Shown: in pieces, positions 3,464 through 55,875 of the stretch
How the letters are laid out: the number at the start of each line of letters is the position of its first letter
Numbering within the stretch: position 1 is the stretch's first letter
Source: Candidatus Zixiibacteriota bacterium
GTDB lineage: Bacteria; Zixibacteria; MSB-5A5; SM1-73
Direction of reading: 5' to 3'
Assembly (NCBI GenBank): GCA_049694315.1
Contig: JBAVQU010000021.1
Location: forward strand, 20,372 to 84,371
DNA: 64,000 bases
The notes under the pieces: generated by a model
Databases searched by the model: none
What the model was told of the DNA's origin: nothing
What the model saw: the letters and a program-made list of their open reading frames with translations, nothing else
Made by a program: the position numbers and the translations under genes

Positions 3464-4683
3464 GCTTCTCCCCCTCCGGCAGAAAGATTCACGACGGTGG
3501 TCACTCCCAGAACAAACATGATGAGCATATTCACTTCCGCATCGGTATAGTAACACTGGAATAGGCTGGCGAAAAGAAAGCCAACGATGGCACTGGCGCC
3601 ACCCATCTGCACCGCGTATCGGAAACCATTCTTTTTTTTCTTGGCCATCGCCTTGATGGTGGAATAGAGGAAAATAATCCACATACTCATATAGGCCAGC
3701 AGCCCCAGAAACCCGGAGTTGACCGTTACGTTCAGGAAATCATTATGCGGATGACAGGTGGTATCATAGTATCCCTCTACTTTGTAACGGTCAAACAGCC
3801 GGCTAAAATTGCCCAGCCCGATCCCCCAGATGGGTTTGTCCTTTATCATGTTTATTGAAGTCAACCATAATCTTATTCTGGTGGACTCCACTTTATCTTT
3901 GGATAAGCTGATTTCCTTAATCCTGTCCCAGCTGGTGGGTTCAATTAGGTAGATCGCCACAAAGAGCAATAACATACCCAAGGTCAGAAGAATGACGAAC
4001 TTCTTGCCCCTCAGAAAACCAAAAGTCAAAACCCCCATTGCCGCTCCAAACCAGGCGCTGCGGGCATAGCAGAAAACCAGTGACAGCCCTATCACTATGG
4101 GTGCAAGGAAATCCATGATTCCGTGAAAACCGTATCTTCTGTTGGCCAGAGCCATCGCGGACGTCATCAGAAAAGCAAGCATGTAATACCCGCCGAACGT
4201 GAGATGATGATCAAAGAATCCCAGACTGATGTATACCTGTCCTCGTGCCTCAAGCTGGCTATGGCGATACAGGTCCATTCCCGAATAATGCTGCCATATG
4301 GCGTAGAATCCCACCAGAACGGAGACGGAGATCAGAATGGTCAGAAGTTTCTTGACTTGGGCTTCCTCTTTGACATGATTGACGATCAGGAAGAAAATCA
4401 GCAGCAACCATTCCTCTTTTAAGGCCAAAAGACTCTGAATCTTGTAAGGGGAGAATATGACTGCGATCGCCTGAGTCCCCACATAGAGGAGAATCGGCAG
4501 GTTCAAAGGTGTGTAGATAAACTTTAGGCTTCTGGACAAAACAGATTTCGTCAACCAAGCCAGAAGCGCCAGATTGACCATGGTCTGCGCCCCGGCTATC
4601 GACCAAGGGGAAAAGGCCGCGAAACCACACAGGGAAAACCAGATTATCTTGTCCGCCGTCTTTATCGCATTTTCTCTGGTCAT
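3460..4683 (-). CDS. O-antigen ligase (WaaL/RfaL) family membrane protein
   Basis: This 407-aa polytopic membrane protein has about 10 hydrophobic segments and a large loop. It lies inside an LPS cluster between glycosyltransferases. Confidence 0.65.
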   Translation of the reverse strand: MTRENAIKTADKIIWFSLCGFAAFSPWSIAGAQTMVNLALLAWLTKSVLSRSLKFIYTPLNLPILLYVGTQAIAVIFSPYKIQSLLALKEEWLLLIFFLIVNHVKEEAQVKKLLTILISVSVLVGFYAIWQHYSGMDLYRHSQLEARGQVYISLGFFDHHLTFGGYYMLAFLMTSAMALANRRYGFHGIMDFLAPIVIGLSLVFCYARSAWFGAAMGVLTFGFLRGKKFVILLTLGMLLLFVAIYLIEPTSWDRIKEISLSKDKVESTRIRLWLTSINMIKDKPIWGIGLGNFSRLFDRYKVEGYYDTTCHPHNDFLNVTVNSGFLGLLAYMSMWIIFLYSTIKAMAKKKKNGFRYAVQMGGASAIVGFLFASLFQCYYTDAEVNMLIMFVLGVTTVVNLSAGGGEA

Positions 4684-5019
4684 GATTAATAGCCTAAAGA
4701 TTCTCAGGCCGAGTGTTCACCTTGTGCTCGTCTGCCAATTGTGATGACGACCCTACATAGAGCTACAAGAAGAAGGGAAATGTAGGGGCGACCTTTCCCC
4801 GCACTGATCCCCTCCTTGACGGGAGAAATGTGGTTCCCCGCAAAGCCAGCTTCCTGAGAGGACAAGTCCGTCCCTTGCCGAGGTTTTCCGAGAACGACGT
4901 ACTGTGTTCTCAAGACCTGTTAACTCAAGAAGCTGACGAGCCTTGGGCGAACCAGGTCAAGCGCGCCATCCGCACACGCCAGAGAACTTCTCGGATTTGC
5001 TTCTTAGAGTTCCAAGCTG

Positions 5020-6147
5020 CTAACCCAACAGGCTAAAATATACATCTTCCGTTTGCTGAGCAAAGAGATTTAACGTGAATTTTCCCGTCACGATTCGGCG
5101 ACTTGCTTCTCCGAATTCTCTCCTCCTCTTGTCATCTTGCAGCAATTGGACCAGGGCACAAGCCAATTCATCTGCATTCCCCGGTTCCACCAGAAGCCCG
5201 TTGACCTGATGTTCTACCACCTCGGGAATGGCATTGACCCTAGTTCCCACCACCGGTTTTCCCATGGACATGTATTCCAGAGCCACCCGGCAGATGGTCT
5301 CTGAGCCCACGGAGCACACCACGCCCACGTCGAAGAGAGAGATGATCTCTCGAACGTCCTCGACCTTCCCCAGAAACCGAAATTTCTCCTGCAACCCGAT
5401 TGCTCCTACCTCCTGTTTCAATTCCGCAGCGTTTATTTGTGCATCCTCGCCGCATACGATGAATATCACGTCGGGTATCTGCCGAACGACCTGTTCTGCC
5501 GCTTGAATTAGGAACCGGTGCCCTTTGACCGGAGAAAGCCTCCCTACGATTCCCACCACCAGACTCCCTTCCGGGAGGCTCAGGTTCCACCACCATGTGT
5601 GGTCACTGTCCCGCGGAGAGAAGAAATCATGATCTATTCCCACCGGAACGTTGATCAACTTATCCTGCGGCATATTCAGGTGTGTCAAGTAACTGGTCCT
5701 TAGAATGTCACAGGTGGTTATGATCCTATCCGTAAGCCCCCGATTTAGAAGTCGGCCAAAAAGATCGCCTTTCGGGGATCTCACGTCACCCCTGGTTCTC
5801 ACCAAAGGAACTCCCAGCCTGAATAAGCTTCTGGCCAGCGCGGCAATAGTGTGACCTTCCCCCCGGTGAGCATTTATCACGTCGATTCTTTCCTTCTGGA
5901 CCAAATTCACCATTCTTTTGACGTTGCGCGCGATCATCCACGGGTCTTTGTGGCTCAGATAAAGGTCATCGCAGACTGAAAGTCCCATTTCTTTGGCTTT
6001 CAAAAGGGGCGGGCTGTGGGGATCGCCAGCGACTATCACCTTGTGCCCTTTCTTCTTCAAGGCATAGGACAGGCTCACCGCATAGTAGGCGCAGGCATTA
6101 TACCACTCTACGTTGATCAACTGTAAGACGTTCAATCTTCTCCGCAA
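5020..6147 (-). CDS. Glycosyltransferase family 4 (group 1) protein
   Basis: The N-terminus reads VLQLINVEWYNACAYYAVSLSYALKKKGHKV and the C-terminal motif is GKPVVGTRVNAIPEVVEHQVNGLLVEP, both typical of GT4. Confidence 0.75.
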   Translation of the reverse strand: MRRRLNVLQLINVEWYNACAYYAVSLSYALKKKGHKVIVAGDPHSPPLLKAKEMGLSVCDDLYLSHKDPWMIARNVKRMVNLVQKERIDVINAHRGEGHTIAALARSLFRLGVPLVRTRGDVRSPKGDLFGRLLNRGLTDRIITTCDILRTSYLTHLNMPQDKLINVPVGIDHDFFSPRDSDHTWWWNLSLPEGSLVVGIVGRLSPVKGHRFLIQAAEQVVRQIPDVIFIVCGEDAQINAAELKQEVGAIGLQEKFRFLGKVEDVREIISLFDVGVVCSVGSETICRVALEYMSMGKPVVGTRVNAIPEVVEHQVNGLLVEPGNADELACALVQLLQDDKRRREFGEASRRIVTGKFTLNLFAQQTEDVYFSLLG

Positions 6148-7243
6148 TTCCTCTCTCTTCGATTTCCTGCAAGTCCTTCAGGAGCTTAAGGAAGACTCCT
6201 TGGACCTCCTCCACCGTGATTAAGTCTAAGCAGGAAAGTTCGTGGCATTTATCTTTGATTTTGTCGCAGTCGGGGCAGTCCATGTCGCTTTTTAGGACTT
6301 TGTGTCGACAGGGATCGGGATAGGTCCAGTTTGTCGGGTCTTCAGGTCCGAAGACAGTGATGGTTGGTTTACCCATGGCCACGGCGATATGCTTGGTGCC
6401 GTTGTCATTGCCGATATGGAGGTCGCACCTCTTCAGCATGGCGCCCAGTTGAAAAAGACTTCTGGTTTCCTGGCTTACTGCCGGTTTCTCTCTCATCAGA
6501 CTCTTGACCTCTTCCACCACTTCTTTCTCATCCGGTCCCCAAACCAAAATCACATTAGCCCGAAATTCGGAGATAAGCCAGTCAGCCAATTGGGCGAATC
6601 GGTTCAAAGGCCACCGCCGAAAACGCCTCCGGCTGGTGGGAGAGATTGAAATTGTGAACTTACTTTCCTCAAGACCGTTTTCTTTGAAGAACCTTTCTGC
6701 AGATGCCTCGGCTTCTTCCGGGATAAAGAAATCCAGTTTCAGATCCTGACTCTGCCAACCAAGCCTTCTTAGTACTTGCAGTTTATGGACGGCGGCGTAC
6801 TTAGGCACTCCATCGTCTTTCACCACCAGGTTATAGAACAGCCTTCTAAAGTGAAGATCGTGTCCTACCCGGCGCTTGGCACCGGAAAAAAGGGAAATGT
6901 AAGCGCTCCGGGGGTTGCCCATGAAATCTATCGCTAAATCAAACGACCTCTTCCTGATTTCCCACATCTTTCGGAAGGAGTAGAAAGGATTCTGGTACCT
7001 CTCCCGCTCCAGGACAATCAACTCGTCTAAGTAAGGATTCAGAGCCAGAAGATCCGAAGACTCCTTTTCGGTAAGGAAAACAATGTAGCTTTCGGGACAA
7101 CTTACCCTCAGGGCACGCACCGCCGGAGTGCACAATAGCACATCGCCGATGCGGCGGAGTTGAACCAAGAGTATTCTCTGAGGGCAGTTCATGGTTTGAT
7201 TTGCTGACAGAGGGGTCGGAGTTTGTCCCGGGCCGGGAGTCAC
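6098..7243 (-). CDS. Glycosyltransferase family 9 protein (heptosyltransferase-like), the second GT9 paralog in the cluster
   Basis: Reads RILLVQLRRIGDVLLCTPAVRAL...HIGNDNGTKHIAVAMGKPTITVFGP, which is GT9-like. Confidence 0.75.
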   Translation of the reverse strand: MTPGPGQTPTPLSANQTMNCPQRILLVQLRRIGDVLLCTPAVRALRVSCPESYIVFLTEKESSDLLALNPYLDELIVLERERYQNPFYSFRKMWEIRKRSFDLAIDFMGNPRSAYISLFSGAKRRVGHDLHFRRLFYNLVVKDDGVPKYAAVHKLQVLRRLGWQSQDLKLDFFIPEEAEASAERFFKENGLEESKFTISISPTSRRRFRRWPLNRFAQLADWLISEFRANVILVWGPDEKEVVEEVKSLMREKPAVSQETRSLFQLGAMLKRCDLHIGNDNGTKHIAVAMGKPTITVFGPEDPTNWTYPDPCRHKVLKSDMDCPDCDKIKDKCHELSCLDLITVEEVQGVFLKLLKDLQEIEERGIAEKIERLTVDQRRVV

Positions 7244-15789: not shown

Positions 15790-16230
15790 TTTAATTTCCG
15801 CTCGGAGTGCGGACCCCTGCCGTCTACCAAAACGGATGGGCCAAACCCCTAAACCCCACCCCACAGAGGTTTAATGCGCCGTATTCACTCTGGAGTGGAA
15901 ACCTGAATGAATTCCCAACGGACCCCGGTTGAATTGCCAGTTTGTGTGATCATATGGTGTGGGTCTGTTTTCCGATCAAGCCGCAAGTGAAAACGCGTAC
16001 CTTCCGCTATGCAGAAAAGTGTTGTGATACCGAGCCGGGTGACTTATCTTGAGCTCGTGGCACTGATCTGGCACTCTATCCATGACTTCAAGTTGTTGTA
16101 AATTTGAATGGATAAGTGAAATTCAGAGTTTCTGTCGCATTTCCCATTGCCGGCTTGTGTACGATCATTTATCTGTGAGTCGGTCGACGTTCTTCCTGAA
16201 GAGGAATTCGGGCAACAAGCAACCAAGAAG

Positions 16231-17403
16231 ATGAAGATCATAATTGCTACAGACAATTATTACCCCCACATTAACGGCGCTTCTCTCTTCGCGCAAAGAC
16301 TCGCCTTCCATCTCAAAAAACAAGGCCACTCAGTCTTAGTCATCGCCCCGTCGCTTACCACTCATTCCGAATTCTCTACTACCAACGGAATCCGCATATT
16401 CGGAATTCGCTCGGTCCCAATACTTATGTACCGGGGATTTCGTGTCTCCCTCCCTTTCTTCATGAAGAAACGGATGGAAGAGATCATACAGGAATTTGAT
16501 CCCGATATCATACATTTCCAAGGTCACTTCTATATTTCCAAAGCCGTTCTTTCGATTGCCCAGAAATTAAAGATACCTACATTAGGAACGAATCACTTCA
16601 TGCCCGAAAACGCCATTCATTATCTTCATCTTCCCAAGTTTGCAGAGAATCCGATTAAGAGATGGGCTTGGAAACAATTTCACTCAGCCTTCGAAAGAAT
16701 GGATATTGTCACTTGTCCAACAGAGACTGCGGTTCAAGTCGTTCGGAGTAACCACCTCAGAAAAAACGCCATGGTTGTGTCTAACGGTGTGGATTTATCA
16801 GAGTTCCATGCCGGTAATGACGGGACATATCTTAAGGAAAAATATAAGCTGCCGGATGAACCCATACTCTTATATGTGGGAAGGCTGGACAAGGAAAAGA
16901 ATATCGATATGATTCTCCGGGCCTTAGCTCTGGTGACAAAGAGAATCAATGTCCACTTTGTAGTGGCGGGTGACGGAGAAGAAAAAGCTGAGCTTAGGAA
17001 CTCGACGAAAGATCTTAATCTTGAAAAGCTCGTTACCTTCACCGGATACGTGTTAGATGAGGATTTACGGAACATATATCGGATTGCCGACTGCTTTGTT
17101 ATTGCCGGAGCCGCTGAATTGCAGAGTATCGTTACCATGGAGGCGATGGCTTCGGGATTGCCGGTGATTGCCCTGAATGCATTGGCTCTGCCTGAACTGG
17201 TTAAGCCCGGGGTAAATGGGTATCTGTTTGAATTCAACGACATAAATGGCTTGGCGCAGGATATCATGAGGATCTTTTCGGATGATTCCCTCCGAAAAAA
17301 GATGGCTGCCGAAAGCTTGGAGCTTATCAAAGACCACCGCATCGAAAATACTGTCCATAAGTTTGAGTCACTCTACCAGTCGCTGCTTAAAAAGAATAAA
17401 TAG
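16231..17403 (+). CDS. Glycosyltransferase family 4 protein
   Basis: Reads MKIIIATDNYYPHINGASLFAQRLAFHLKKQGHSV and carries the GT4 motif EAMASGLPVIALNALALPELVKPGVNGYLF. Confidence 0.75.
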   Translation: MKIIIATDNYYPHINGASLFAQRLAFHLKKQGHSVLVIAPSLTTHSEFSTTNGIRIFGIRSVPILMYRGFRVSLPFFMKKRMEEIIQEFDPDIIHFQGHFYISKAVLSIAQKLKIPTLGTNHFMPENAIHYLHLPKFAENPIKRWAWKQFHSAFERMDIVTCPTETAVQVVRSNHLRKNAMVVSNGVDLSEFHAGNDGTYLKEKYKLPDEPILLYVGRLDKEKNIDMILRALALVTKRINVHFVVAGDGEEKAELRNSTKDLNLEKLVTFTGYVLDEDLRNIYRIADCFVIAGAAELQSIVTMEAMASGLPVIALNALALPELVKPGVNGYLFEFNDINGLAQDIMRIFSDDSLRKKMAAESLELIKDHRIENTVHKFESLYQSLLKKNK

Positions 17404-17500
17404 AGAATGATAAGCTCAATGAGCATGAGGTAAAAGACTGGGCTGGTGATTTACCAAAGGACATGGTTGACCTACGAATTACTAGCATGATGTCAGATTC

Positions 17501-17690
17501 AAATCCCCCTTAATCCCCCTTTGCTAAAGGGGGATTTCTACTCAGGCTGATTGTCGGGCAGCTTGCCAAATGGGTCGCAACCGGAATTTACAAATCTTCG
17601 TGCGGGGCTGGGAGCCCCGCCTACGAGCTTGCTGGACTTGCTGGGCTGGCTGGGCTTGCGGATAGCTGTTTTTCATTTTTCCAGTCGTCC
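17501..17690 (+). repeat. GC-rich palindromic repeat element, copy A. The palindrome (AAATCCCCCTT...AAGGGGGATTT) is followed by GCTGATTGTCGGGCAGC and GGGTCGCAACC.
   Basis: It shares the palindrome, the GCTGATTGTCGGGCAGCT segment and the G(G/A)TCGCAACC(G/A)GA.TTACAAA segment with copy B at 18166-18352. It also contains a perfect hairpin GCGGGGC-TGGGA-GCCCCGC. Confidence 0.5.
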
Positions 17691-17709
17691 TGCTGCATGA
17701 ACTATAACA

Positions 17710-17925
17710 TTCAAACCAAAGGACATAGCGAACTCCCGATACTGATGTTACTGACATTTCTGGCGTTACTGGCGGTTGTTTTAATTTTTTTCCATTCCTA
17801 CTGAAGTATGAGCTTTGCTGTTCATACAAAAGGACATAGCGGATCTGCGATACCGGTGTTTCTGGCGCATCTGGTGCTTCTGGTGTTTGTTTTTATTTTT
17901 TTTCACTTTCATCGCAAGTGATTGA
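17710..17925 (+). repeat. Two tandem ~100-bp units at ~75% identity. Each begins AAAGGACATAGCG and encodes a ~20-aa hydrophobic peptide (17745..17804 and 17856..17921).
   Basis: Unit 1 encodes MLLTFLALLAVVLIFFHSY and unit 2 encodes (V)FLAHLVLLVFVFIFFHFHRK. The units align along their whole length. Confidence 0.5.
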
Positions 17926-17956
17926 AGTTTAATACATTAGATATTGTGTCGGGTGA

Positions 17957-18021
17957 ATTCAAAGTTCAAGGTTCAAGGCTCAAAGTTCAAGGTTCAAAAT
18001 TCCAATTCAAAATTCAAAGTT
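17957..18021 (+). repeat. Tandem heptamer array of (RRTTCAA) in about 9 units
   Basis: Reads aattcaa agttcaa ggttcaa ggctcaa agttcaa ggttcaa aattccaattcaa aattcaa. Confidence 0.8.
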
Positions 18022-18165
18022 ACGCATTCCATAAATTCGGTAAGGGTGCATGAACAATATATTCCATCTCCTACAAACAAGCGCGGTATCCGCTTCAACA
18101 TTGAAGCTGTGGCGAATTTGTTTTTTGTGGTAAGAGAGACAACGGGTTAGGTCGTGGGTTTAGAA

Positions 18166-18352
18166 CCCCCTGAATCCCCCTTATCAGGGGGACAACCCCC
18201 TAAATCCCCCTTTGCCAGAGGGGGATTTCAAGTCAAGCTGATTGTCGGGCAGCTGTCCCGCCCTTCGGGTCTGAGCCTTCCTTCGATACTGAGTCTCAGG
18301 ACGAAGTGCAGGGTCGAAGACCAAAAGCGGGATCGCAACCAGACTTACAAAC
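18166..18352 (+). repeat. GC-rich palindromic repeat element, copy B, with internal insertions relative to copy A
   Basis: Contains CCCCCTGAATCCCCCTTATCAGGGGG, then AAATCCCCCTTTGCCAGAGGGGGATTT, then GCTGATTGTCGGGCAGCT, and about 75 bp later GGGATCGCAACCAGACTTACAAAC. Confidence 0.5.
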
Positions 18353-18530
18353 TACAGGTTAGGTTGTTGTCGGACAGATAAAACGCCCGACACCCTTCGA
18401 CTATGCTCAGGGTAAACGAAGGTCGGGCGCTACGCATTTAAGGACCAAGCTCACGGGGGCAATGGAGTGTAGCAAAATCCCTGTCCGGGTGCATGCACTG
18501 GTCAGACGCTTCATATTCAGTGGGCAGGTC

Positions 18531-18578
18531 AGAAGCCCCGTACTCCTGACTTATCTTGGTGTCAGGCGCGCAGGGCAC
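18531..18578. repeat. Copy 1 of a 45-bp hairpin repeat (GAAGCCCCGTACTCCTGACTTATCTTGGTGTCAGGCGCGCAGGGCA)
   Basis: Near-identical copies lie at 19031..19080 and 19622..19655. It contains the inverted repeat CCTGAC-N10-GTCAGG. Confidence 0.7.
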
Positions 18579-18595
18579 TCGAACTCCGGACTTAT

Positions 18596-18949
18596 CTATT
18601 TGTTACCAGAGGCGTTTGGTCGGTTGCTTTTCTTTTCGATTAAGGCTTGAAGGTCATCTATATCCTTCTGTGCTTTGGAGTTCTCTTCACGAATATCCCA
18701 CAAAGATGGTCGTTTATCTGTTCTGAGGACACGTCGAAACACCTGTTCGGAGAGATAACCCACAATGAAGGTGCCCAGTAGAGTTAGGCCACCAATCTTC
18801 CACCCATTATTCCAGAAGACAAGAACTACCATCACAAGCCAAATCATTCCACATACACCAGCGATACTTACAGACCAATGTCCTCGACCTGCAATTCCAA
18901 ATGTCATTGCTATAATAGCGATGAATGCAAGTAACAAGTAGAGAATCAC
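18596..18949 (-). CDS. Hypothetical small membrane protein of 117 aa with 3 predicted TM helices and a charged C-terminal tail
   Basis: It is an ORF with strongly hydrophobic N-terminal segments, flanked on both sides by the 45-bp hairpin repeat. Confidence 0.4.
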   Translation of the reverse strand: MILYLLLAFIAIIAMTFGIAGRGHWSVSIAGVCGMIWLVMVVLVFWNNGWKIGGLTLLGTFIVGYLSEQVFRRVLRTDKRPSLWDIREENSKAQKDIDDLQALIEKKSNRPNASGNK

Positions 18950-19030
18950 AAGACTTGATCCCTCCTAACTTCTTTTTATATGGTTTCCATATAAACCCAC
19001 TCTAGGGTTTAGCTTCCATTGAGCTTTTAG

Positions 19031-19080
19031 GTCAGGAGCCCCATGCTCCTGACTTATCTTGGTGTCAGGTGCGCAGGGCA
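19031..19080. repeat. Copy 2 of the 45-bp hairpin repeat
   Basis: Reads GTCAGGAGCCCCATGCTCCTGACTTATCTTGGTGTCAGGTGCGCAGGGCA. Confidence 0.7.
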
Positions 19081-19093
19081 GCTCACCTACTGG

Positions 19094-19570
19094 CTATTCC
19101 GACTCCATGTCTTCGATTTGTCTTTTCATCTCTCGCTTTTTGATTTCCAGCAATTTATTGAATTCTGCATTTTTCTCATTTTCGATGGCTTCAATCTTCG
19201 CTCGTAAAGAATACTCGAGACCGATCGCGCCCGGCTGCCTTTTGACTTCCTGCAGCTTTTCTCGCAAATACCTTAACTTTTCTCCATATTTAATATCGTA
19301 TTCAGTGTCCAAAGTCCGGCGGACGCTGTCATCCCAGACTTTTAAGTCTTCTTCGTGTCTTTGTCTAAGGACTTCTTTCTTAGTTTTTGTGTCTCTCCTC
19401 TTGAGGAAGTGTCTGCGCCAATCAAGCACCGTATCGGTGATTAGGGGAACAACAATAGCTCCCACAATAATCACAGATATTATCCTCCAGAATTTTCGTT
19501 TAAGACTCACTTCGAACCCAAGTATTTTTCTCATGGCTGAATTCCAAAAACTTACTCTATCATTTGTCAA
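19094..19570 (-). CDS. Hypothetical membrane-anchored coiled-coil protein of 158 aa
   Basis: It has a single TM helix (IISVIIVGAIVVPLI) followed by a highly charged K/E/R-rich predicted coiled coil. It is flanked by copies 2 and 3 of the hairpin repeat. Confidence 0.4.
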   Translation of the reverse strand: MTNDRVSFWNSAMRKILGFEVSLKRKFWRIISVIIVGAIVVPLITDTVLDWRRHFLKRRDTKTKKEVLRQRHEEDLKVWDDSVRRTLDTEYDIKYGEKLRYLREKLQEVKRQPGAIGLEYSLRAKIEAIENEKNAEFNKLLEIKKREMKRQIEDMESE

Positions 19571-19621
19571 CGCTTTTATTTAGTTATCAACTTTTTTTGA
19601 CGACCAAAAGAGCGTGAAGCC

Positions 19622-19655
19622 CAGAAGCCCCGTACTCCCAACTTATCTTGGTGTC
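19622..19655. repeat. Copy 3 of the 45-bp hairpin repeat, truncated or degenerate
   Basis: Reads CAGAAGCCCCGTACTCCCAACTTATCTTGGTGTC. Confidence 0.6.
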
Positions 19656-19950
19656 TTAAGTATGTAACTCAATCAATGAATCTATAGTTAACAGTTTTCT
19701 ATGTCAAGTTGTTTTTGTCTGGTGCACTGCGGATTCATCCTGTCCGCCAGAGGCCAGCGTCCGCTCGCACGTAAGGGCGTGTCTGTCTCAAATAGAACGT
19801 TGCATTGTTTTAAGTTGCGGGCTTAACGTTCGCGTTCAGAGACCGGGCAATCGGGTTGAAACTGAACAAAACCCAACGTGAAGCACATTCCAATGACCGG
19901 TCCACTGAAACGCGTTGTTATCTACCCGGGAAAGAAGATCCATAAGCAGC

Positions 19951-20382
19951 CTAGAAGACAAATGGCACCATGCGTTTGGTCGCGGCTGCATAAGCCTTGT
20001 ACCCGGGATAGCGCGCGCGGAGAAGCTTCTCCTCGGCGAACATGCGGGCAACAGCGCCGATGAGAACAAGGATCACCAGCAGCGCCGCGAATGAGGGGTG
20101 AGCCAGAGCACCAGCGCAGGTGAAAAGGCAGACAGCCGTATAGATCGGGTGCCGGATGTAGCGATAAGGACCGTTGGTGATAAGTGCCCCTTCGGTTGGA
20201 GCTGCTGTAGCATGGAAGCTGCGGTGACCCAAAGTGATGCGCGCCCATACCATCAGTACAACCGCAGCAGTCTGCACCGTGATGACCAACGGGTTAAATG
20301 AAAAGAGCGACCTGGTGACAATAAGGCCAAGCAATCCAGCGACCATCAGTACAAAACCGAAAACGGATAGAAGTCCCAGCAT
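19951..20382 (-). CDS. Methyltransferase of the isoprenylcysteine carboxyl methyltransferase / phospholipid methyltransferase family; a small membrane protein
   Basis: Has the C-terminal motif GPYRYIRHPIY...AEEKLLRARYPGYKAY and 4 TM helices, in 143 aa. Confidence 0.65.
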   Translation of the reverse strand: MLGLLSVFGFVLMVAGLLGLIVTRSLFSFNPLVITVQTAAVVLMVWARITLGHRSFHATAAPTEGALITNGPYRYIRHPIYTAVCLFTCAGALAHPSFAALLVILVLIGAVARMFAEEKLLRARYPGYKAYAAATKRMVPFVF

Positions 20383-20430
20383 GTGTGTTCACCTAAGCGT
20401 TGATCTTGCAGGTGGCTAACGGACTGCGGT

Positions 20431-20739
20431 TCAGCGGCGGTGCGCCAGCGTCGTCCGCTGCAACGATTTGTTAGGCTTTCTCGCCTTTGTTCTCTGCTTT
20501 TTGGGCAGCAGTGGAATTAAACAACGCAAAGCCCGATTCACAGATTCCGAGTCTGGGAAATACGCTCGAATATCCGGTTCCAGGACAACTGCACCTTTTT
20601 TTGGCATCACGTCCTTAACAACAGTTGTACCATCCACCTTATGAATAGCGATGGTATACCCGGCTTGCATGGCTTTGTGGTGCTTGCCACGCACTCCACC
20701 CCTAAAATTATATTCCGTACGCATATCGTTGTCCTCCAC
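20431..20739 (-). CDS. brnA: BrnA-family antitoxin
   Basis: Has the C-terminal BrnA motif VLEPDIRAYFPDSESVNRALRCLI. It lies immediately downstream of a BrnT-like toxin gene. Confidence 0.55.
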   Translation of the reverse strand: MEDNDMRTEYNFRGGVRGKHHKAMQAGYTIAIHKVDGTTVVKDVMPKKGAVVLEPDIRAYFPDSESVNRALRCLIPLLPKKQRTKARKPNKSLQRTTLAHRR

Positions 20740-20749
20740 CTATACTATT

Positions 20750-21037
20750 TTAGTCACTGCCTTCTTCATAAAGTTTCCGCTCCGATGACGTTGCCTTACG
20801 ACTACTGATAATACGTATGTTGGAGCCTCGTTCGGTATAAACCACTACCAGTATGTGACCCTTATCAGAACTGCCAATGTCAATATACCGCTGCTCCTCC
20901 ACTGAATGGCCTGGATCAGGCATCGTAATTGAAAAGGGATCAACGAAAACCGTTGTGGCTTCATCAAAACTGACTTGGTGCTTTTTGAGATTCGCTTTGG
21001 CTTTTTCTTCATCCCACTCAAAGCTCAGTTTCATCAT
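20750..21037 (-). CDS. brnT: BrnT-family (DUF497) ribonuclease toxin
   Basis: Reads MKLSFEWDEEKAKANLKKHQVSFDEATTVFVDP...ILVVVYTERGSNIRIISSRKAT, which matches the BrnT signature. Confidence 0.65.
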   Translation of the reverse strand: MMKLSFEWDEEKAKANLKKHQVSFDEATTVFVDPFSITMPDPGHSVEEQRYIDIGSSDKGHILVVVYTERGSNIRIISSRKATSSERKLYEEGSD

Positions 21038-21288
21038 GGCTCCTTTGAACCCTAGCGTGTCGTTTAAGCATAACCGGCCGCGGTTCACCCGCCGCGCGGG
21101 TGCGGGATAGAGCTTCTGCTACGAGACCAACTACAAGCGCGTGTAGCCGCCGATTCGCGCGCGCCATAGCGCAGTCGGGTGCAAGCGCTGGTTAGGTGGC
21201 CCGCTTGGGCTTTACGTATGCCCGCCAGGTCCCCTTGACCTGGTGGGGAGCTCCTATCAGGTCGGGGACCTCAAGAGGTACTATTTTC

Positions 21289-22803: not shown

Positions 22804-22879
22804 ATCGGGGCGAGCCGATTTGAACGGCCGACCCCTTGCACCCCAAGCAAGTGCGCTAACCAGTCTGCGCTACGCCCCG
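22804..22879 (-). tRNA. tRNA-Pro (anticodon GGG)
   Basis: The minus-strand sequence is CGGGGCG TA GCGC AGACTGGTTA GCGC A CTTGC TTGGGGT GCAAG GGGTC GGCCG TTCAAAT CGGCT CGCCCCG A. It folds as a cloverleaf with a 7-bp acceptor stem, a D arm, anticodon loop UUGGGGU and a TPsiC arm; CCA is not encoded. Confidence 0.8.
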
Positions 22880-22916
22880 ATTTAGTTAGAACAGTATAAT
22901 CTGCCTCGATGATAAG

Positions 22917-27458: not shown

Positions 27459-28772
27459 TCAGTCCCTCTTCTTTATCTTAATCCTGATCGGATTTCCCAA
27501 GAATCCAAAATGCTCCCGGATTTTGTTCTCCAAGTACTTCAAATATGGCTTTTGCAGAAGCTCCGGATGGTTGCAGAAGAACACGAAGGTAGGAGGTTGG
27601 ATGCCGGTTTGCGTGACGTAATATATCTTGACATATCGTCCTTTGACCGAAGCCGGAGGCTTAGCTTTTATGTCCTTTTCCAGCTTCTGATTCAACTGGC
27701 TGGTCTCTATTCTCTTTTTCCTTTCATTGTAAACCTGCAAGACCAAGTTCATAACCGTCCGTACTCTTTGCTTGGTCTTGGCTGAGATATAAATAAGCGG
27801 CACGAATCTGAGCAGCGGCGCTTCTTGCCTCAAGGTCTTGGTATAAAGATCTGCCGTCTTACCGTCTTTCTCCAAGAGATCCCATTTGTTCACGGCTATC
27901 ACCATTCCTTTTCGCAGATCAAAAACTTCCCGGGCGATTTTGACATCCTGGCTTAAAAGTCCCACCTGAGCCTCGGTCAGAATCAGGGCCACGTCGCATC
28001 TCTCGATCGATCTTAAGGTCCTCAGGGTGGTGTAGTATTCCAAACTCTCTGTGATTTTGGCCTTGCGCCGCAGGCCGGCGGTATCGATCAGGGTAAAGGA
28101 CCGACTGTCGATTTCGATTTCCGTGTCGATTGCATCTCTGGTGGTTCCCGGCGTTCCGGTAACGATCAGCTTTTCTTGACCTAAGAGGGCGTTGACGAAG
28201 GAGGATTTCCCTACGTTCGGTCTTCCGATCACCGCCACTTTGATGCTCTCCTTCTCCTCGGGGAGAGTGGACTCCTCCGGCAGACTCGAAGTCATCAGAT
28301 CCAGAAGGTCGCCGGTGTTTCTGCCGCTAATAGCGGAAACCAAGACGGCTTCCCCCAGACCCAGCCTATTCAACGAATAGGCCTCAGCCTCGTCCTTGGT
28401 CGTATCCACTTTGTTGGCTACCAGAAGAACTTGCTTTTTGGTCTTCCTTAACCGATGGGCTATCTCCAAATCCACCGACTGCGCCCCCACCTTTGCATCC
28501 ACCAGGAAAAGCACCATATCCGCTTCGGCAATGGCTATCTCTGCCTGAGCTTTCACCAATCTTTCGATTTCGGTATTACTGGAAGGTATGTATCCACCGG
28601 TGTCAATCACATAAAACCCCTTTCCATTCCATGTGGTAAAGGCGTAGTTCCGGTCTCGGGTGATTCCCGGCTGGTCATCCACCACCGCAATGCGCTTCTT
28701 CAAGAGGCGGTTGAACAGCGTGGATTTTCCTACATTCGGCCTGCCGATTATGGCAACGATGGGAACGGACAT
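27459..28772 (-). CDS. der: Ribosome-biogenesis GTPase Der (EngA), with two GTPase domains and a KH-like domain
   Basis: Reads IVAIIGRPNVGKSTLFNRL...DTGG and, in the second G domain, KVAVIGRPNVGKSSFVNAL...DTAG. Confidence 0.9.
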   Translation of the reverse strand: MSVPIVAIIGRPNVGKSTLFNRLLKKRIAVVDDQPGITRDRNYAFTTWNGKGFYVIDTGGYIPSSNTEIERLVKAQAEIAIAEADMVLFLVDAKVGAQSVDLEIAHRLRKTKKQVLLVANKVDTTKDEAEAYSLNRLGLGEAVLVSAISGRNTGDLLDLMTSSLPEESTLPEEKESIKVAVIGRPNVGKSSFVNALLGQEKLIVTGTPGTTRDAIDTEIEIDSRSFTLIDTAGLRRKAKITESLEYYTTLRTLRSIERCDVALILTEAQVGLLSQDVKIAREVFDLRKGMVIAVNKWDLLEKDGKTADLYTKTLRQEAPLLRFVPLIYISAKTKQRVRTVMNLVLQVYNERKKRIETSQLNQKLEKDIKAKPPASVKGRYVKIYYVTQTGIQPPTFVFFCNHPELLQKPYLKYLENKIREHFGFLGNPIRIKIKKRD

Positions 28773-28921
28773 GACCTCAACTGATCTTTGAGAGGGTTAT
28801 CTTTACCTTCTGCCCTTTAATGCATGGCTGATCTATATTAAGACGTCAGTCGTTGAAAAGCAACAAAAAAACCGCCAAACCAGTTTCCTGATTCGGCGGT
28901 TCAAACTAAACGAAGTCATCA

Positions 28922-31900
28922 CTATGGGCAGTGGCAACATGGAGGTGGTCCACCTTTGAACAGATAGTTAACGAGGTAGACCACATCGCCAGCATCGACA
29001 ACTCCATTACAAGTGACATCACCCATCCATAAGGGATTCGGAGCAGGACCGCCCTTAAAGAGATAGTTTATCAGGTATACTATATCTCCAGCATCGACGA
29101 TCCCGTTCCCAGTGCAATCACCACTAAGAGCAACCAGCGCACCAATCAAGCCACAGTGGGCTGAGTTAAGAGGTTCACAAGGTGAACCGTGCTGAATATA
29201 ATAGTCACCAGATATAGTTGGCGCACTGTTGCATGATATTGGGTGACAGAACAGGGGATCTGCGGAGATGCTTAATGATTCTTCTGGACAACCGGGACTA
29301 ATGAAAACACACAACTCCCCAAAACCAGAAGCATCCACGTCAGAACAACAGTTACTTGGAATGCTACCATCACAATACCACTCATTTCCATCTACCGAAC
29401 TCGTCGCGCAGTTACCCCAAACTATCGATCTCGTCAAATATGGGTTGCTAGTGTCTAATTGAGAGATTCCGCCACCTCGATTGGCCTTGTTCCCACTAAT
29501 CGTGCAACTGACAATCGTCGGTGAAGAGTTGTTACTGCAGTATATCCCACCACCATCGCCACCATAAGCTTTATTACCGGTGATTACACATTGAATAATC
29601 GTTGGAGAAGCATTGTTATAGCATGCTATTCCACCTCCGTCTGTCGCTCCATTTCCAAGAATCTTGCAGTTTTTAATTGTAGGCGAGGTATCCACACATA
29701 GGATACCGCCACCACGCTGATTCTGGTCAGTCCTCCCATTTATGATAGTGACACCCTCCACAAGTGACCCGGAGCCTTCCTGTGAGTGAAAGAAAAAACC
29801 ACGGTGCGGGATATCAATGTCAACATTAAACGTGTTACGCGAGCAATCTAAAGTACATGCATCAGCCCCGTGCTGCGAACGCACGATAATAGGCTTCGCT
29901 TGGAAAGTAATATCTCTGTTACCATCGCCCCAGAAAGTCCCATCCATAAGCAGAACAGTGTCACAATTACTGGCGGAATCAATCGCGGCTTGAATCGTGG
30001 GGACGTCTCCTGTATGGTCTGGCTTAACGACCCATTTTCGACATACAACTATCGTATCGTAATCATAATAGAAAGGACCCTGTTCAGAAAGCGCTGCTCT
30101 AACAGTAAAGGGGAAAACTCCTGTTTTGGTTGGTGTTCCTGAGATTATGCCAGTGGTATTCTCTAAAGATAACCCATCAGGTAGCTGACCTTCCACGACC
30201 CCGAGTGATGCATTACTAGAACATACGAACACTACGGTGTCCTGATATTGGTAACCGATAACCCCATTTGTTAATGGATTATGGACAAAATGGCACTCGG
30301 TAACCTCGCCCAGAAGCCAATCCAGGCAGATATCTGCTCTGAGAGGAGGTGACGTAAGTGAAGTTTCAAGAACGAAATTTTGATCTCTCTGGTCGTTAAA
30401 AACAGTGAGAGTTTCCTTTGCTACCCCATCGTCCAAGATAATGTCAATAGGCATATGGTAGACTTCAGGAACATAAGGATCTATTGAAGGAGTTTGAGTC
30501 TGTTTAAGATTAAGGAAGATCTTACCGTCGTCTCTGACAAAGAACCAGGACTCGTACACCGGATGATAGTCACTATATATCCATTCATGGAAAAAAGTAT
30601 TAAGACGTGTGTCACCCGTTACGTTAACACACACGTCTCGGAATTGTTCAGTGCTTGCATGGTTCCATTTGTAAGTACTCAAGTATTCGTGCAGAATATT
30701 ATAAAAAACTTGATTGCCTACCCAGTGCCTTAACATGTGAAGCACCCAAGATCCCTTATTGTAAACTCTATGGAGAATTTCCTCGGTAACATTTCCAACA
30801 TATCCATTCTCCAGGTATACTGATCCATGTCCCAAGTAGCGATACCGGTCGATATACCGGAACATTGCATTCAAACCATATTTTTTTCAACCCATATACA
30901 CTCTGAATATCTTGCAAAACCCTCATTGATCCAGAAATGGTTCCATGTGGAACAGGTTACACAATTACCCCACCATGAGTGAGATAGTTCATGGCTCAGT
31001 GGAGTTTGACCATACTGAGTATCGCAAATTGCAGTAATAGTCGGATACTCCATTGCTCCGAGTCTTATTGGAACCTGCATCATCCCGTATTTCTCCATTA
31101 CATATGGTGGGTAGATGCCTGAGTAAGGGTAGGCACCGAAACAGGTTTCGAAAGTATCCAACATTTCCACGACCTTAGGAAAGGAATCCCTTGCGGTAGC
31201 AACATTCTCAGGATAAACATAGAACCATATAGGCATAGTACCGTTTCCACTCTGCAAAATATAAGAAGTATCTAGTCTGACATAATTGGTACAGCCAATA
31301 CCCACTTGGTAGGTCGCAATCGGATAATGCTCTCTCCAATAGCTTGTTTCTCTTCCTCCACTGACGAACTCCATATTGAGTGTTCCGTTTGAAGCACATC
31401 TAAAGTTGTCAGGATAGGTCACCGTCATATAGATAGAGTCTGCTTTGTCCTCCACGCGGTCCTTACATGGCCACCAACGTCGGGCATAAACAGGTTCTGA
31501 CATGTTATAACAGATATCAGTCCTTGCATGAGCACCAAAAATGAATCCAAGCTGAGTCAAAGCGTAACCCGGTTTTCCATGGTAATAGACCGTGACTCTG
31601 AATGTGTCGTTATAATTGTATGTTTGGGGTTGGAAACTGATATCTACAAATGAATCCACTTGGGTACCCGTTGGATTAGCTATCCCCACGACTTTTACTG
31701 AATCGACGTGCATGTAATGGAAGGGATCATAGTCATATCTGTACAAGTCTAGCCTAATAAATGACAGTCCGTTTATTAGGCTTCGTCCTTCTAAATAAAC
31801 CGATCCGTCAATTGCTGAGTTATCAAAGTCCAAATTAAGATTGATTCGATAGAAAAGAGCGTCCCAGTCATCTTGGGAGCTATGATGGTCGCTCAAAACG

Positions 31901-55798: not shown

Positions 55799-55875
55799 TG
55801 GTGGGCGATACTGGAATCGAACCAGTGACCCCTTGCATGTCAAGCAAGTACTCTAACCATCTGAGCTAATCGCCC
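55799..55875 (-). tRNA. tRNA-Val (anticodon GAC), with CCA encoded
   Basis: The minus strand reads GGGCGAT TA GCTC AGATGGTTA GAGT A CTTGC TTGACAT GCAAG GGGTC ACTGG TTCGATT CCAGT ATCGCCC A CCA, a canonical cloverleaf. Confidence 0.85.

Follow-up and report, generated by a model that had tools for sequence, protein, structure and literature searches.

A probable two-part accessory region downstream of surE in a Zixibacteria contig: an attC cluster without integron integrase beside a second gene array without attC sites

The subject of this analysis is the interval between a GT4 gene (16147-17403, plus strand) and surE (22029-21289, minus strand), which converge on it at positions 17404-21288 of a 64-kb stretch of a Zixibacteria contig (the window, part of a contig of 126.5 kb). 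We assign a probability of about 0.8 to the reading that this interval, here called the island, is accessory DNA in two parts: a surE-proximal attC-site cluster that has no integron integrase (CALIN) at 21197-19821, and a distal hotspot of 2.4 kb without attC sites. The five island open reading frames (ORFs) discussed are all on the minus strand, in the same direction as surE. A preliminary description of the same DNA had listed atypical elements of six kinds in the island, all of which were recovered in place, but it left them as an unexplained mixture and overlooked three attC sites on the minus strand. Its idea of a variable accessory hotspot holds up; its term decayed mobile element is too vague since the type of element can be named, an integron cassette array.

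The attC sites were detected with a covariance model (R1) built only from 15 attC sites of clinical class 1 plasmid integrons, and not with the attc_4 model of IntegronFinder. These sites were extracted from six class 1 integron arrays and aligned, and belong to aadA1, aadA2, psp, qacL, cmlA1, estX, dfrA1, arr-3, dfrA27, blaOXA-1, qacG2, aac(3)-Ia, blaVEB and two ORF cassettes. The aadA1 attC was verified against PLSDB, where some 2000 plasmids matched it with 100% identity. The model encodes no pairs other than R''/R' and L''/L', and was run on both strands of the window with filters off. Exactly three full-length matches were found, all on the minus strand and at ORF boundaries, and the next best match reached 9.5 bits. 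Control DNA comprising 77 unrelated surE loci (1.2 Mb) gave a single partial match of 14 bits. A crude scan for AAC...GTT palindromes proved unspecific, with about 100 matches including tRNA, and the covariance model was used in its place. The sites and the genes among them are the following.

21197-21068, minus strand: attC_A, 130 nt, R'' ACCTAAC and R' GTTATGC, 19.6 bits, E 0.011 for the whole window
21037-20750, minus strand: brnT, 95 aa, ribosome-binding site AAAGGAG at 21046-21040, Pfam BrnT_toxin PF04365 with E 3.7e-29, above the gathering score
20724-20431, minus strand: BrnT partner gene, 97 aa, in the antitoxin position, of an unannotated family
20476-20414, minus strand: attC_B, 63 nt, GCCTAAC AAATC GTT-G-CAGCGG-A-CG...CCGCTGAAC...GTTAGCC, 33 bits, E 3.4e-6
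20382-19951, minus strand: ICMT/PEMT-like membrane methyltransferase gene, 143 aa, GC 0.56, Pfam PEMT 3.7e-10 and ICMT 1.7e-8
19923-19821, minus strand: attC_C, 103 nt, AGATAAC...GTTAAGC, 29.6 bits, E 2.8e-5

An attC site carries inverse cores at its ends, R'' with the consensus RYYYAAC and R' with the consensus GTTRRRY, 57-141 nt apart. The AAC and GTT triplets were intact in all three sites, and the outer core bases matched the consensus imperfectly. In the model alignments all three displayed the arm GTT-N-6bp-A-C with two extra-helical bases, 6 bp apart; in attC_A, UU-G-CACCCG-A-C pairs with G-CGGGUG-AA and the two bulged bases occupy the canonical positions. The first bulged base on the bottom strand is C or A at the three sites, the classical base being G. 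For attC_B and attC_C, folding of the plus (bottom) strand gave the bulged hairpins expected of attC, with DNA fold z-scores of -2.8 and -2.1 for attC_C. In its R''-L'' arm, AACAAATCGTTGCAGCGGAC, attC_B differs little from the cmlA1 attC, AACAAATCGCTGCAGCCGAC, and the arm of the aadA1 attC is also a near match. Read on the minus strand, the GC-rich stretches between surE, the brnT pair, the ICMT gene and the next segment begin with ...YTAAC and end with GTTR.... All three sites have the architecture, the model score and the position at ORF boundaries of attC sites. A further segment at 19727-19776 (minus strand) resembles the inner arms of attC_B, with which it has GCGGACGCTGGC and CCGCAGTGC in common; it is without R''/R' cores, was not found by the model, and is possibly a relic attC arm.

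CALINs were defined as in Cury et al. 2016 (PMC4889954), where 83% of them have fewer than six attC sites. The locus falls under this definition because its three attC sites are clustered, within 1.4 kb on the minus strand, and no integron integrase was found within 4 kb or elsewhere in the window. A tblastn search of the window with IntI1 gave neither a match nor the signal of an intI pseudogene; a search with a Y1 transposase was also negative there, as was a regular expression for the tyrosine-recombinase box (HxLRH). That no integrase or transposase is visible had been remarked in the preliminary description, and this agrees. Up to 4 kb from the array the ORFs encode a sulfatase, GT4, SurE, GT2, a MerR-like protein and GpsA. 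A complete integron would have intI with an adjacent attI and the promoter Pc; the window has no intI, and the sole strong promoter (19707-19679) comes only downstream of the attC cassettes and is directed away from these. Many CALINs have been described and they are common; the locus adds one in Zixibacteria, a phylum for which a literature search gave no integron report, only incidental mentions.

The surroundings of surE were compared with those of relatives. SurE was 77-80% identical to SurE of six Zixibacteria-like loci from metagenome-assembled genomes (MAGs), and the order plsY-gpsA-merR-GT2-surE was kept in five relatives. After surE there is a porin-like gene (loci L002, L006 and L008) or an MBL-fold gene (L003). 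Neither GT4, the sulfatase nor the island genes were present in five relatives within the available sequence downstream of surE (at most 10 kb), and the covariance model found no attC in the relatives' surE loci. The interval is accessory because relatives keep the gene order up to surE but differ in the genes that follow. The preliminary description had taken the interval for a variable hotspot and would have given this up had relatives conserved it with identical content; they do not, and modules of the island recur elsewhere, as described below. When strain-level variation was checked, the array sequence was present in one other sample only, in the same order and on fragmented contigs.

The first cassette holds brnT, whose product also matched a ribonuclease toxin in PHROGs (1.8e-21). 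BrnT is 77% identical to BrnT of locus L101, whose partner protein P0176 is named by NCBI as of Candidatus Brocadia fulgida. The partner gene in the window had no match in Pfam (even at E 10), NCBIfam, PADLOC or PDB, and the BrnA_antitoxin model was not matched either; of the brnT/brnA pair named in the preliminary description the toxin stands by its domain, whereas the label brnA is positional only. The AlphaFold2 (AF2) model of the partner had a pLDDT of 56, too low for a fold search. More than 1400 homologues of the partner were found, and the best 120 were about 77-93% identical; several distant phyla are represented among these 120, and the few with a name include Brocadia, Syntrophales, Nitrospirae, Desulfobacteria and Aquicultor. 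The partner gene is located directly behind the BrnT gene in nearly every locus fetched, and this conserved adjacency supports an antitoxin role. The family is an unannotated, unusually conserved and horizontally spread family in the antitoxin position. As in BrnT/BrnA of Brucella abortus, a BrnT ribonuclease-toxin domain is encoded first and a small partner directly downstream; unlike BrnA, the partner here lies outside Pfam BrnA_antitoxin, in a separate and very conserved family.

The brnT pair is a promiscuous module. That brnTA might be an attC cassette in general was rejected, no flanking attC being present in Brocadia or groundwater loci. Because the loci examined elsewhere are without flanking attC, the module appears to have been captured here as a cassette. 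The partner ORF extends 13 codons beyond the usual ...KAKKA end of the family and its stop codon lies inside attC_B. attC_B appears to have been fused over the original stop codon of the partner, and the locus may thus preserve a moment in the making of a cassette. It offers a natural example of a toxin module, widely spread and usually lacking attC, caught as a cassette, which is relevant to the question of how cassettes arise.

The second cassette encodes the ICMT-like methyltransferase, which had been recognised in the preliminary description and matched both Pfam domains given above; the match to the NCBIfam isoprenylcysteine methyltransferase (2.9e-15) was under the curated cut-off. An orthologue of the cassette (87% identical in amino acids, 92% in nucleotides) was present on L095-L097, there between the genes for AhpC and DeoC. 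In L095 the first homologous position is 6 nt ahead of the GTTAGCC core; from there the similarity extends across the gene and breaks off within the downstream attC, and the sequence upstream of the GTTAGCC core is unrelated to the window. The model found attC-like sites on both sides of this cassette in L095 (17.6 and 15.1 bits), and the same sites with mutated cores were seen in L098. The ICMT cassette shows mobility at the level of the cassette.

The way in which the array came about and works may be depicted as follows. It runs in the order attC_A, brnT with its partner, attC_B, the ICMT-like methyltransferase gene and attC_C, each cassette starting 31 nt after a GTT crossover core and ending in an imperfect palindrome with two bulged bases. 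Integron integrases read the two bulged bases of attC on the folded bottom strand. As in integrons that have been characterised, an IntI integrase, here acting in trans, would have placed the cassettes and could still excise or exchange them; because the surE-proximal half is integron cassette DNA, its gene content would be exchangeable by such an integrase. The start of brnT is 31 nt past the R' core of attC_A, and the 5' untranslated region of the ICMT gene likewise takes up the 31 nt from the R' core of attC_B, so that no space is left for a cassette promoter. Having no promoter of their own, the cassettes probably depend for expression on read-through of the GT2-surE transcript, which has the same direction. 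A stabilising role is ascribed to toxin-antitoxin cassettes in chromosomal integrons, and the toxin pair probably stabilises the array. One element lies on the path of the proposed read-through.

21229-21271, minus strand: GC-rich hairpin just past the surE stop codon (21289), between surE and attC_A, aGGTCCCCgACCTG...CCAGGTcaaGGGGACCt

This hairpin is without a T-run and may be a terminator or attenuator. Its position after surE weighs on the proposed read-through and is one of several points that speak against the two-part reading. attC_A on its own is marginal in the model search (E 0.011), and no ORF lies between surE and attC_A, which a simple model of stepwise insertion does not predict. 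The brnT pair is usually without attC at other loci. No integrase was found in the 64 kb inspected of the 126-kb contig, and recombination activity is purely inferred. Finally, more than half of the island (17404-19820) is without attC, so the cassette array does not explain that half.

Alternatively, the array could be what remains of a complete chromosomal integron whose intI and attI were deleted or moved elsewhere, rather than the product of in-trans insertion at an attG-type site; we consider this origin rather doubtful. It would account for attC_A having no preceding ORF, as expected if the upstream part of the array was cut off, and the relic attC-like arm at 19727-19776 and the hybrid or decayed attC sites in L095 and L098 are in line with it. 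Loss of intI and rearrangement are also listed among the origins of CALINs by Cury et al. (PMC4889954). On the other side, the tblastn search left no signal of an intI pseudogene anywhere in the window, and neither surE nor the synteny upstream of it is disturbed up to the edge of the array. Genomic attG sites moreover take up cassettes efficiently, and intI remnants are absent from most small CALINs (Loot et al., bioRxiv 10.1101/2022.09.11.507474).

The array is close to several described systems, with differences in each case. Like the CALINs of Cury et al. 2016 (IntegronFinder), it has three attC sites on one strand in 1.4 kb with no intI nearby, short promoterless non-resistance cassettes and fewer than six sites. 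Unlike them, it adjoins another gene array, one without attC, as well as a non-coding module that is conserved and foreign to the CALIN concept; its first attC is without a cassette ORF, and its host phylum is Zixibacteria. It is chromosomal like the sedentary arrays of the Vibrio superintegron type, and one of its attC-bounded cassettes carries a type II toxin module, in the company of cassettes with unknown or accessory functions. In contrast to those arrays it has no IntI, attI or Pc and two cassettes only, and its attC sites (63, 103 and 130 nt) are heterogeneous and not a homogeneous, species-specific family. With the attG insertions and single attC sites that have no integron integrase (SALINs) of Loot et al. 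it shares cassettes outside an integron platform, directly 3' of a housekeeping gene and with no integrase remnant. It differs in being a multi-site cluster and not a single cassette, and the attG junction is not reconstructable here, no close enough relative having an empty site. For the surE-proximal half, an unexplained mixture of repeats is replaced by a named mechanism, and the range of attC cassettes and CALINs now takes in a candidate phylum whose genomes are mostly MAGs from sediment.

The distal part of the island, 17404-19820, contained no attC according to the model. Its features are listed below, from the promoter to the GT4 side.

19707-19679, minus strand: promoter P, sigma-70-like, TTGACA-17-TAGATT, 10 of 12 matches in the promoter scan, pointing at the membrane-protein genes
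19618-19669: D2 hairpin copy 3, partial, 69% identical, in the leader downstream of promoter P
19534-19094, minus strand: orf146, 158 aa from an alternative TTG start at 19570, with one N-terminal transmembrane (TM) helix and a charged, coiled-coil-like tail
19029-19080: D2 hairpin copy 2, 92% identical, hairpin GTCAGGAGCCCCATGCTCCTGAC, z -2.8
18963-18997, minus strand: palindrome TTATATGGAAACCATATAA followed by GTTAGGA, upstream of orf117, as read from the sequence and compared with L002 and L085
18949-18596, minus strand: orf117, small membrane protein with 2-3 predicted TM helices
18526-18577: D2 hairpin copy 1, 52 nt, with an extra 18-nt half-copy at 18580-18597
18153-18525: insertion relative to L002, in which the flanks are contiguous; palindromes resembling miniature inverted-repeat transposable elements (MITEs) or repetitive extragenic palindromic (REP) elements
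18159-18254: CCCCC...GGGGG element copy 2, within the insertion, which also contains GCTGATTGTCGGGCAG and a hairpin at 18395-18435
18008-18152: conserved non-coding core, 145 nt, in which the 20-mer AAATTCGGTAAGGGTGCATG is invariant; ends ACCTAAC on the cassette strand
17958-18021: heptamers TTCAARG, period 7, 9.3 copies, Tandem Repeats Finder (TRF) score 72
17601-17921: tandem units, hexamer CTGGTG/CTGGRC every 9 nt followed by a T-rich block; three units, the third degenerate (17452-17700)
17498-17600: MITE-like CCCCC...GGGGG element copy 1, which splits the third tandem unit (start 17452-17497)

Promoter P probably drives the two membrane-protein genes. Its 19-mer AACAACTTGACATAGAAAA is identical in L095-L098, and at the equivalent place L002 and L085 have TTGACA-17-TATAAT. 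Just upstream of promoter P, L095 (7846-8636) and L098 (1-63) have small ORFs that are paralogues of one another; their products carry a signal or TM segment and end in a tail rich in Cys and Trp (e.g. ...CTAWCMYCMEFPPYYCWCQCCGW), and may be secreted peptides or resemble ribosomally synthesised and post-translationally modified peptides (RiPPs). The product of orf146 has a predicted TM segment at residues 13-39, no domain in Pfam, NCBIfam or PADLOC, and only four homologues (49-59% identity) among 5.8 billion proteins. For orf117, 11 related clusters were found at E<1e-3 among 1.84 billion representatives, with a weak sub-threshold match to Pfam CyanoTRADDas_TM. The preliminary description had two small membrane-protein ORFs delimited by a 45-bp hairpin repeat in three copies; TM segments are predicted in both, and the repeat, measured here as 52 nt, does bracket the two ORFs in three copies. 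It would have given up its suggestion of novel cargo had recognisable domains covered all the island ORFs, but three of the five were without one.

The chance expectation for the D2 repeat is 0, and neither the rest of the window nor 90 kb from the surE loci of relatives contained a copy. We read D2 as a probable REP-like terminator or stabiliser hairpin and not as a recombination site, because its copies stand directly after stop codons and in either orientation relative to the ORFs (inverted in L085). As a candidate non-canonical attC it was rejected, having no AAC/GTT cores, no score in the model and both orientations relative to the ORFs. D2 and the CCCCC...GGGGG elements are like MITEs and like REP elements, including REP doublets forming hairpins (REPINs) and bacterial interspersed mosaic elements (BIMEs), in that they are short palindromes after stops, in either orientation, shared between loci and sometimes interrupting other elements. 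They differ from the REP, REPIN and BIME elements in that, in the available sequence, they occur inside these arrays only, and the window has no Y1 transposase of the REP-associated tyrosine transposase (RAYT) type. A Y1 gene (IS200/RAYT-like) is located at 3014-3364 of L095, 5.4 kb from the frame described below. An attC-like architecture 3' of D2 copy 1 (18436-18507, minus strand) reached 5.4 bits, which is not significant; its cores are mutated (GTCTGAC ... CTTAAAT) and it may be a decayed attC. In L113, D2 also stands 3' of the closest homologue of orf146, which is part of an array of small same-strand ORFs (3500-6450). A motif like GGTCTGGGCGNGGAAAAAGTTTGAG precedes each of three upstream small ORFs of this array, the model found no attC there, and the array may be another non-attC organisation of small accessory genes.

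The GC-rich palindromic element measures 59 nt in its two copies (17505-17563 and 18196-18254), which are 90% identical with 0 expected in shuffles. These copies and the tandem heptamers had been noted before and were both recovered. Palindrome motifs of the insertion at 18153-18525 were also present in L082, L087 and L095, and homologous heptamer arrays had 3 to 9 copies. The region of the core is 73-78% identical over about 300-375 nt to L002, L082, L085 and L086, and the core is 75% identical over 113 nt to L087. RNAalifold on both strands of four sequences gave no covariation and the single-sequence fold z-score was near 0, so the core was rejected as a structured RNA; it was likewise rejected as protein-coding, stops and frames differing between loci. 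Rfam scans, at the gathering threshold and at E<=10, gave nothing relevant in the island.

Together, promoter P, the accessory genes, the core and the repeats behind it form an arrangement, the frame, which was found again by a metagenome scan with the core 20-mer and blastn at about six independent loci. The architecture is present in L002/L084, L082, L083/L085, L086 and L087, and with a diverged core in L095-L098. On the cassette strand, complete frames display a co-directional housekeeping gene, the strong promoter, accessory genes, the core, the heptamers, the units and a convergent housekeeping gene. The cargo consists of HEPN genes, toxin pairs, the ICMT cassette, type I restriction-modification genes and unknowns. 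The flanking genes differ every time, with at least four chromosomal contexts. In L003 and L005 the genes flanking the frame of L002 adjoin each other without it; mapping its exact ends by this comparison was given up, the intergenic DNA being too diverged. An attC of 32 bits was found by the model inside the frame of L085. Other cassette arrays in related genomes, at other places in the chromosome, are surrounded by the frame as well, which makes it a recurrent accessory hotspot or platform. It also gives a testable lead to the organisation and expression of arrays without an integrase.

Two observations concern single frames. The cargo after the ICMT cassette and D2 in L098 (1274-3374) comprises type I restriction-modification genes (hsdM and further genes), so that the hotspot also takes large defence cargo. 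In L087, the C-terminus of an ISL3-like transposase lies beside the core (~540-900) and has no counterpart in the window.

A second boundary motif was seen in frames: the palindrome TTATAYGGNAACCRTATAA followed after 5-6 nt by GTTAGSM, upstream of unrelated ORFs and at variable distance from their start codons. Its sites are 18963-18997 in the window, 17215-17233, 17339-17368 and ~18010-18050 in L002 (three copies) and ~8030-8065 in L085, and its GTTAG resembles the integron R-box. The frame could, although we think it unlikely, be a discrete and undescribed element, either a docking platform with a promoter but no integrase or a mobile element of the non-autonomous kind, which moves between 3'-3' gaps and collects attC cassettes together with genes that have other boundaries. 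Four or more chromosomal contexts display the same end modules, and the gene ends on either side converge every time; L003 and L005 have an empty site, the strong conserved promoter reads into the cargo, and the second motif precedes unrelated ORFs. attC sites moreover accompany three of the four complete frames and are essentially absent from the 1.2 Mb of controls. Against this, the search for exact ends, for a target-site duplication and for a cognate recombinase gave nothing, and boundaries could not be mapped by setting L002 against L003. In the window the frame does not enclose the attC cassettes, whereas in L095 it does, which leaves no single docking point; the core has no RNA structure, the independent loci are only about six, and conserved intergenic modules with repeats accumulating in convergent gaps could arise without a dedicated mechanism.

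The stronger version of this idea is less probable again, and we would call it quite unlikely: that Zixibacteria have a cassette platform of a new type, without integrase but equipped with a promoter, portable, landing in convergent gaps and recruiting attC- and GTTAGSM-bounded genes. This platform would comprise promoter P, a hairpin in the leader, the 145-nt core with ACCTAAC at its end, the heptads and the units of 9-nt period. On this reading the frame could be an attG-hotspot or a proto-attI caught in evolution. Only the frame, among the parts of the island, might be new in kind, on evidence that is suggestive but thin. Omega-protein heptads on the plasmid pSM19035 offer a parallel to the heptamer array, and by this analogy one may speculate that the end module is an operator or a centromere-like protein-binding array; it is speculation of the same order that cassettes dock preferentially at the frame.

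The tandem units were described earlier as two units of ~100 bp encoding hydrophobic mini-peptides. Two 111-nt units (17676-17786 and 17787-17897, 71% identical) with ORFs are indeed present, but that they are coding is doubtful. The hydrophobic mini-ORFs are on the plus strand at 17745-17804 (MLLTFLALLAVVLIFFHSY) and 17856-17921 (MFLAHLVLLVFVFIFFHFHRK), and hydrophobicity is kept in homologues, but starts and stops shift. It seems improbable to us, if worth stating, that the units encode real small hydrophobic peptides, for instance type I toxins paired with antisense RNAs as in Ibs/Sib, which would help to stabilise the island. Ibs/Sib loci have a size and a tandem duplication like those of the 111-nt units, whose ORFs of 19-21 aa are hydrophobic, and hydrophobic ORFs in the same frame were found in L002, L085, L086 and L095. 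However, the ORF lengths vary from 19 aa to at least 79 aa with neither start nor stop conserved, some ORFs run through the heptamers, the putative Shine-Dalgarno sequence is about 20 nt from the start, and the peptide of the first unit is non-hydrophobic in L002 and L085. CTGGTG is invariant and every third triplet free, which fits a DNA repeat and not codon evolution, and the units look like a repeat at the DNA level.

With so many other palindromes in the region, and with unremarkable single-sequence fold z-scores for attC_A and attC_B, the attC-like sequences might be taken for chance GC-rich palindromes in a repeat-laden intergenic gap or a prophage or integrative and conjugative element (ICE) remnant, but this is very improbable given three independent covariance-model matches on one strand at ORF boundaries and essentially none in the controls, their closeness in sequence to the cmlA1 and aadA1 attC, the cassette-precise homology breakpoints of the ICMT cassette, and the lack of phage structural or integrase genes and of matches in viral contigs. 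A prophage or defence island had also been tried as an explanation and was rejected: PHROGs and PADLOC gave nothing except the BrnT toxin, and scans of viral contigs were empty.

The composition of the island, proposed earlier as a check for skew, gave a divided result. GC is a mosaic of 0.41-0.64 per segment compared with 0.50 for the whole window, but the tetranucleotide distance ranks 7 among 121 windows, atypical yet not the most atypical stretch. More atypical was the segment at ~27500-30900, with a tetranucleotide distance of up to 0.34, against 0.25 for the island, and a GC of 0.43-0.44, which includes a 650-aa ORF at 28922-30874 (minus strand). ARAGORN called a tRNA-Pro(GGG) at 22804-22880 (minus strand), and the Rfam gathering scan of the window gave only a tRNA-Val at 55802-55875.

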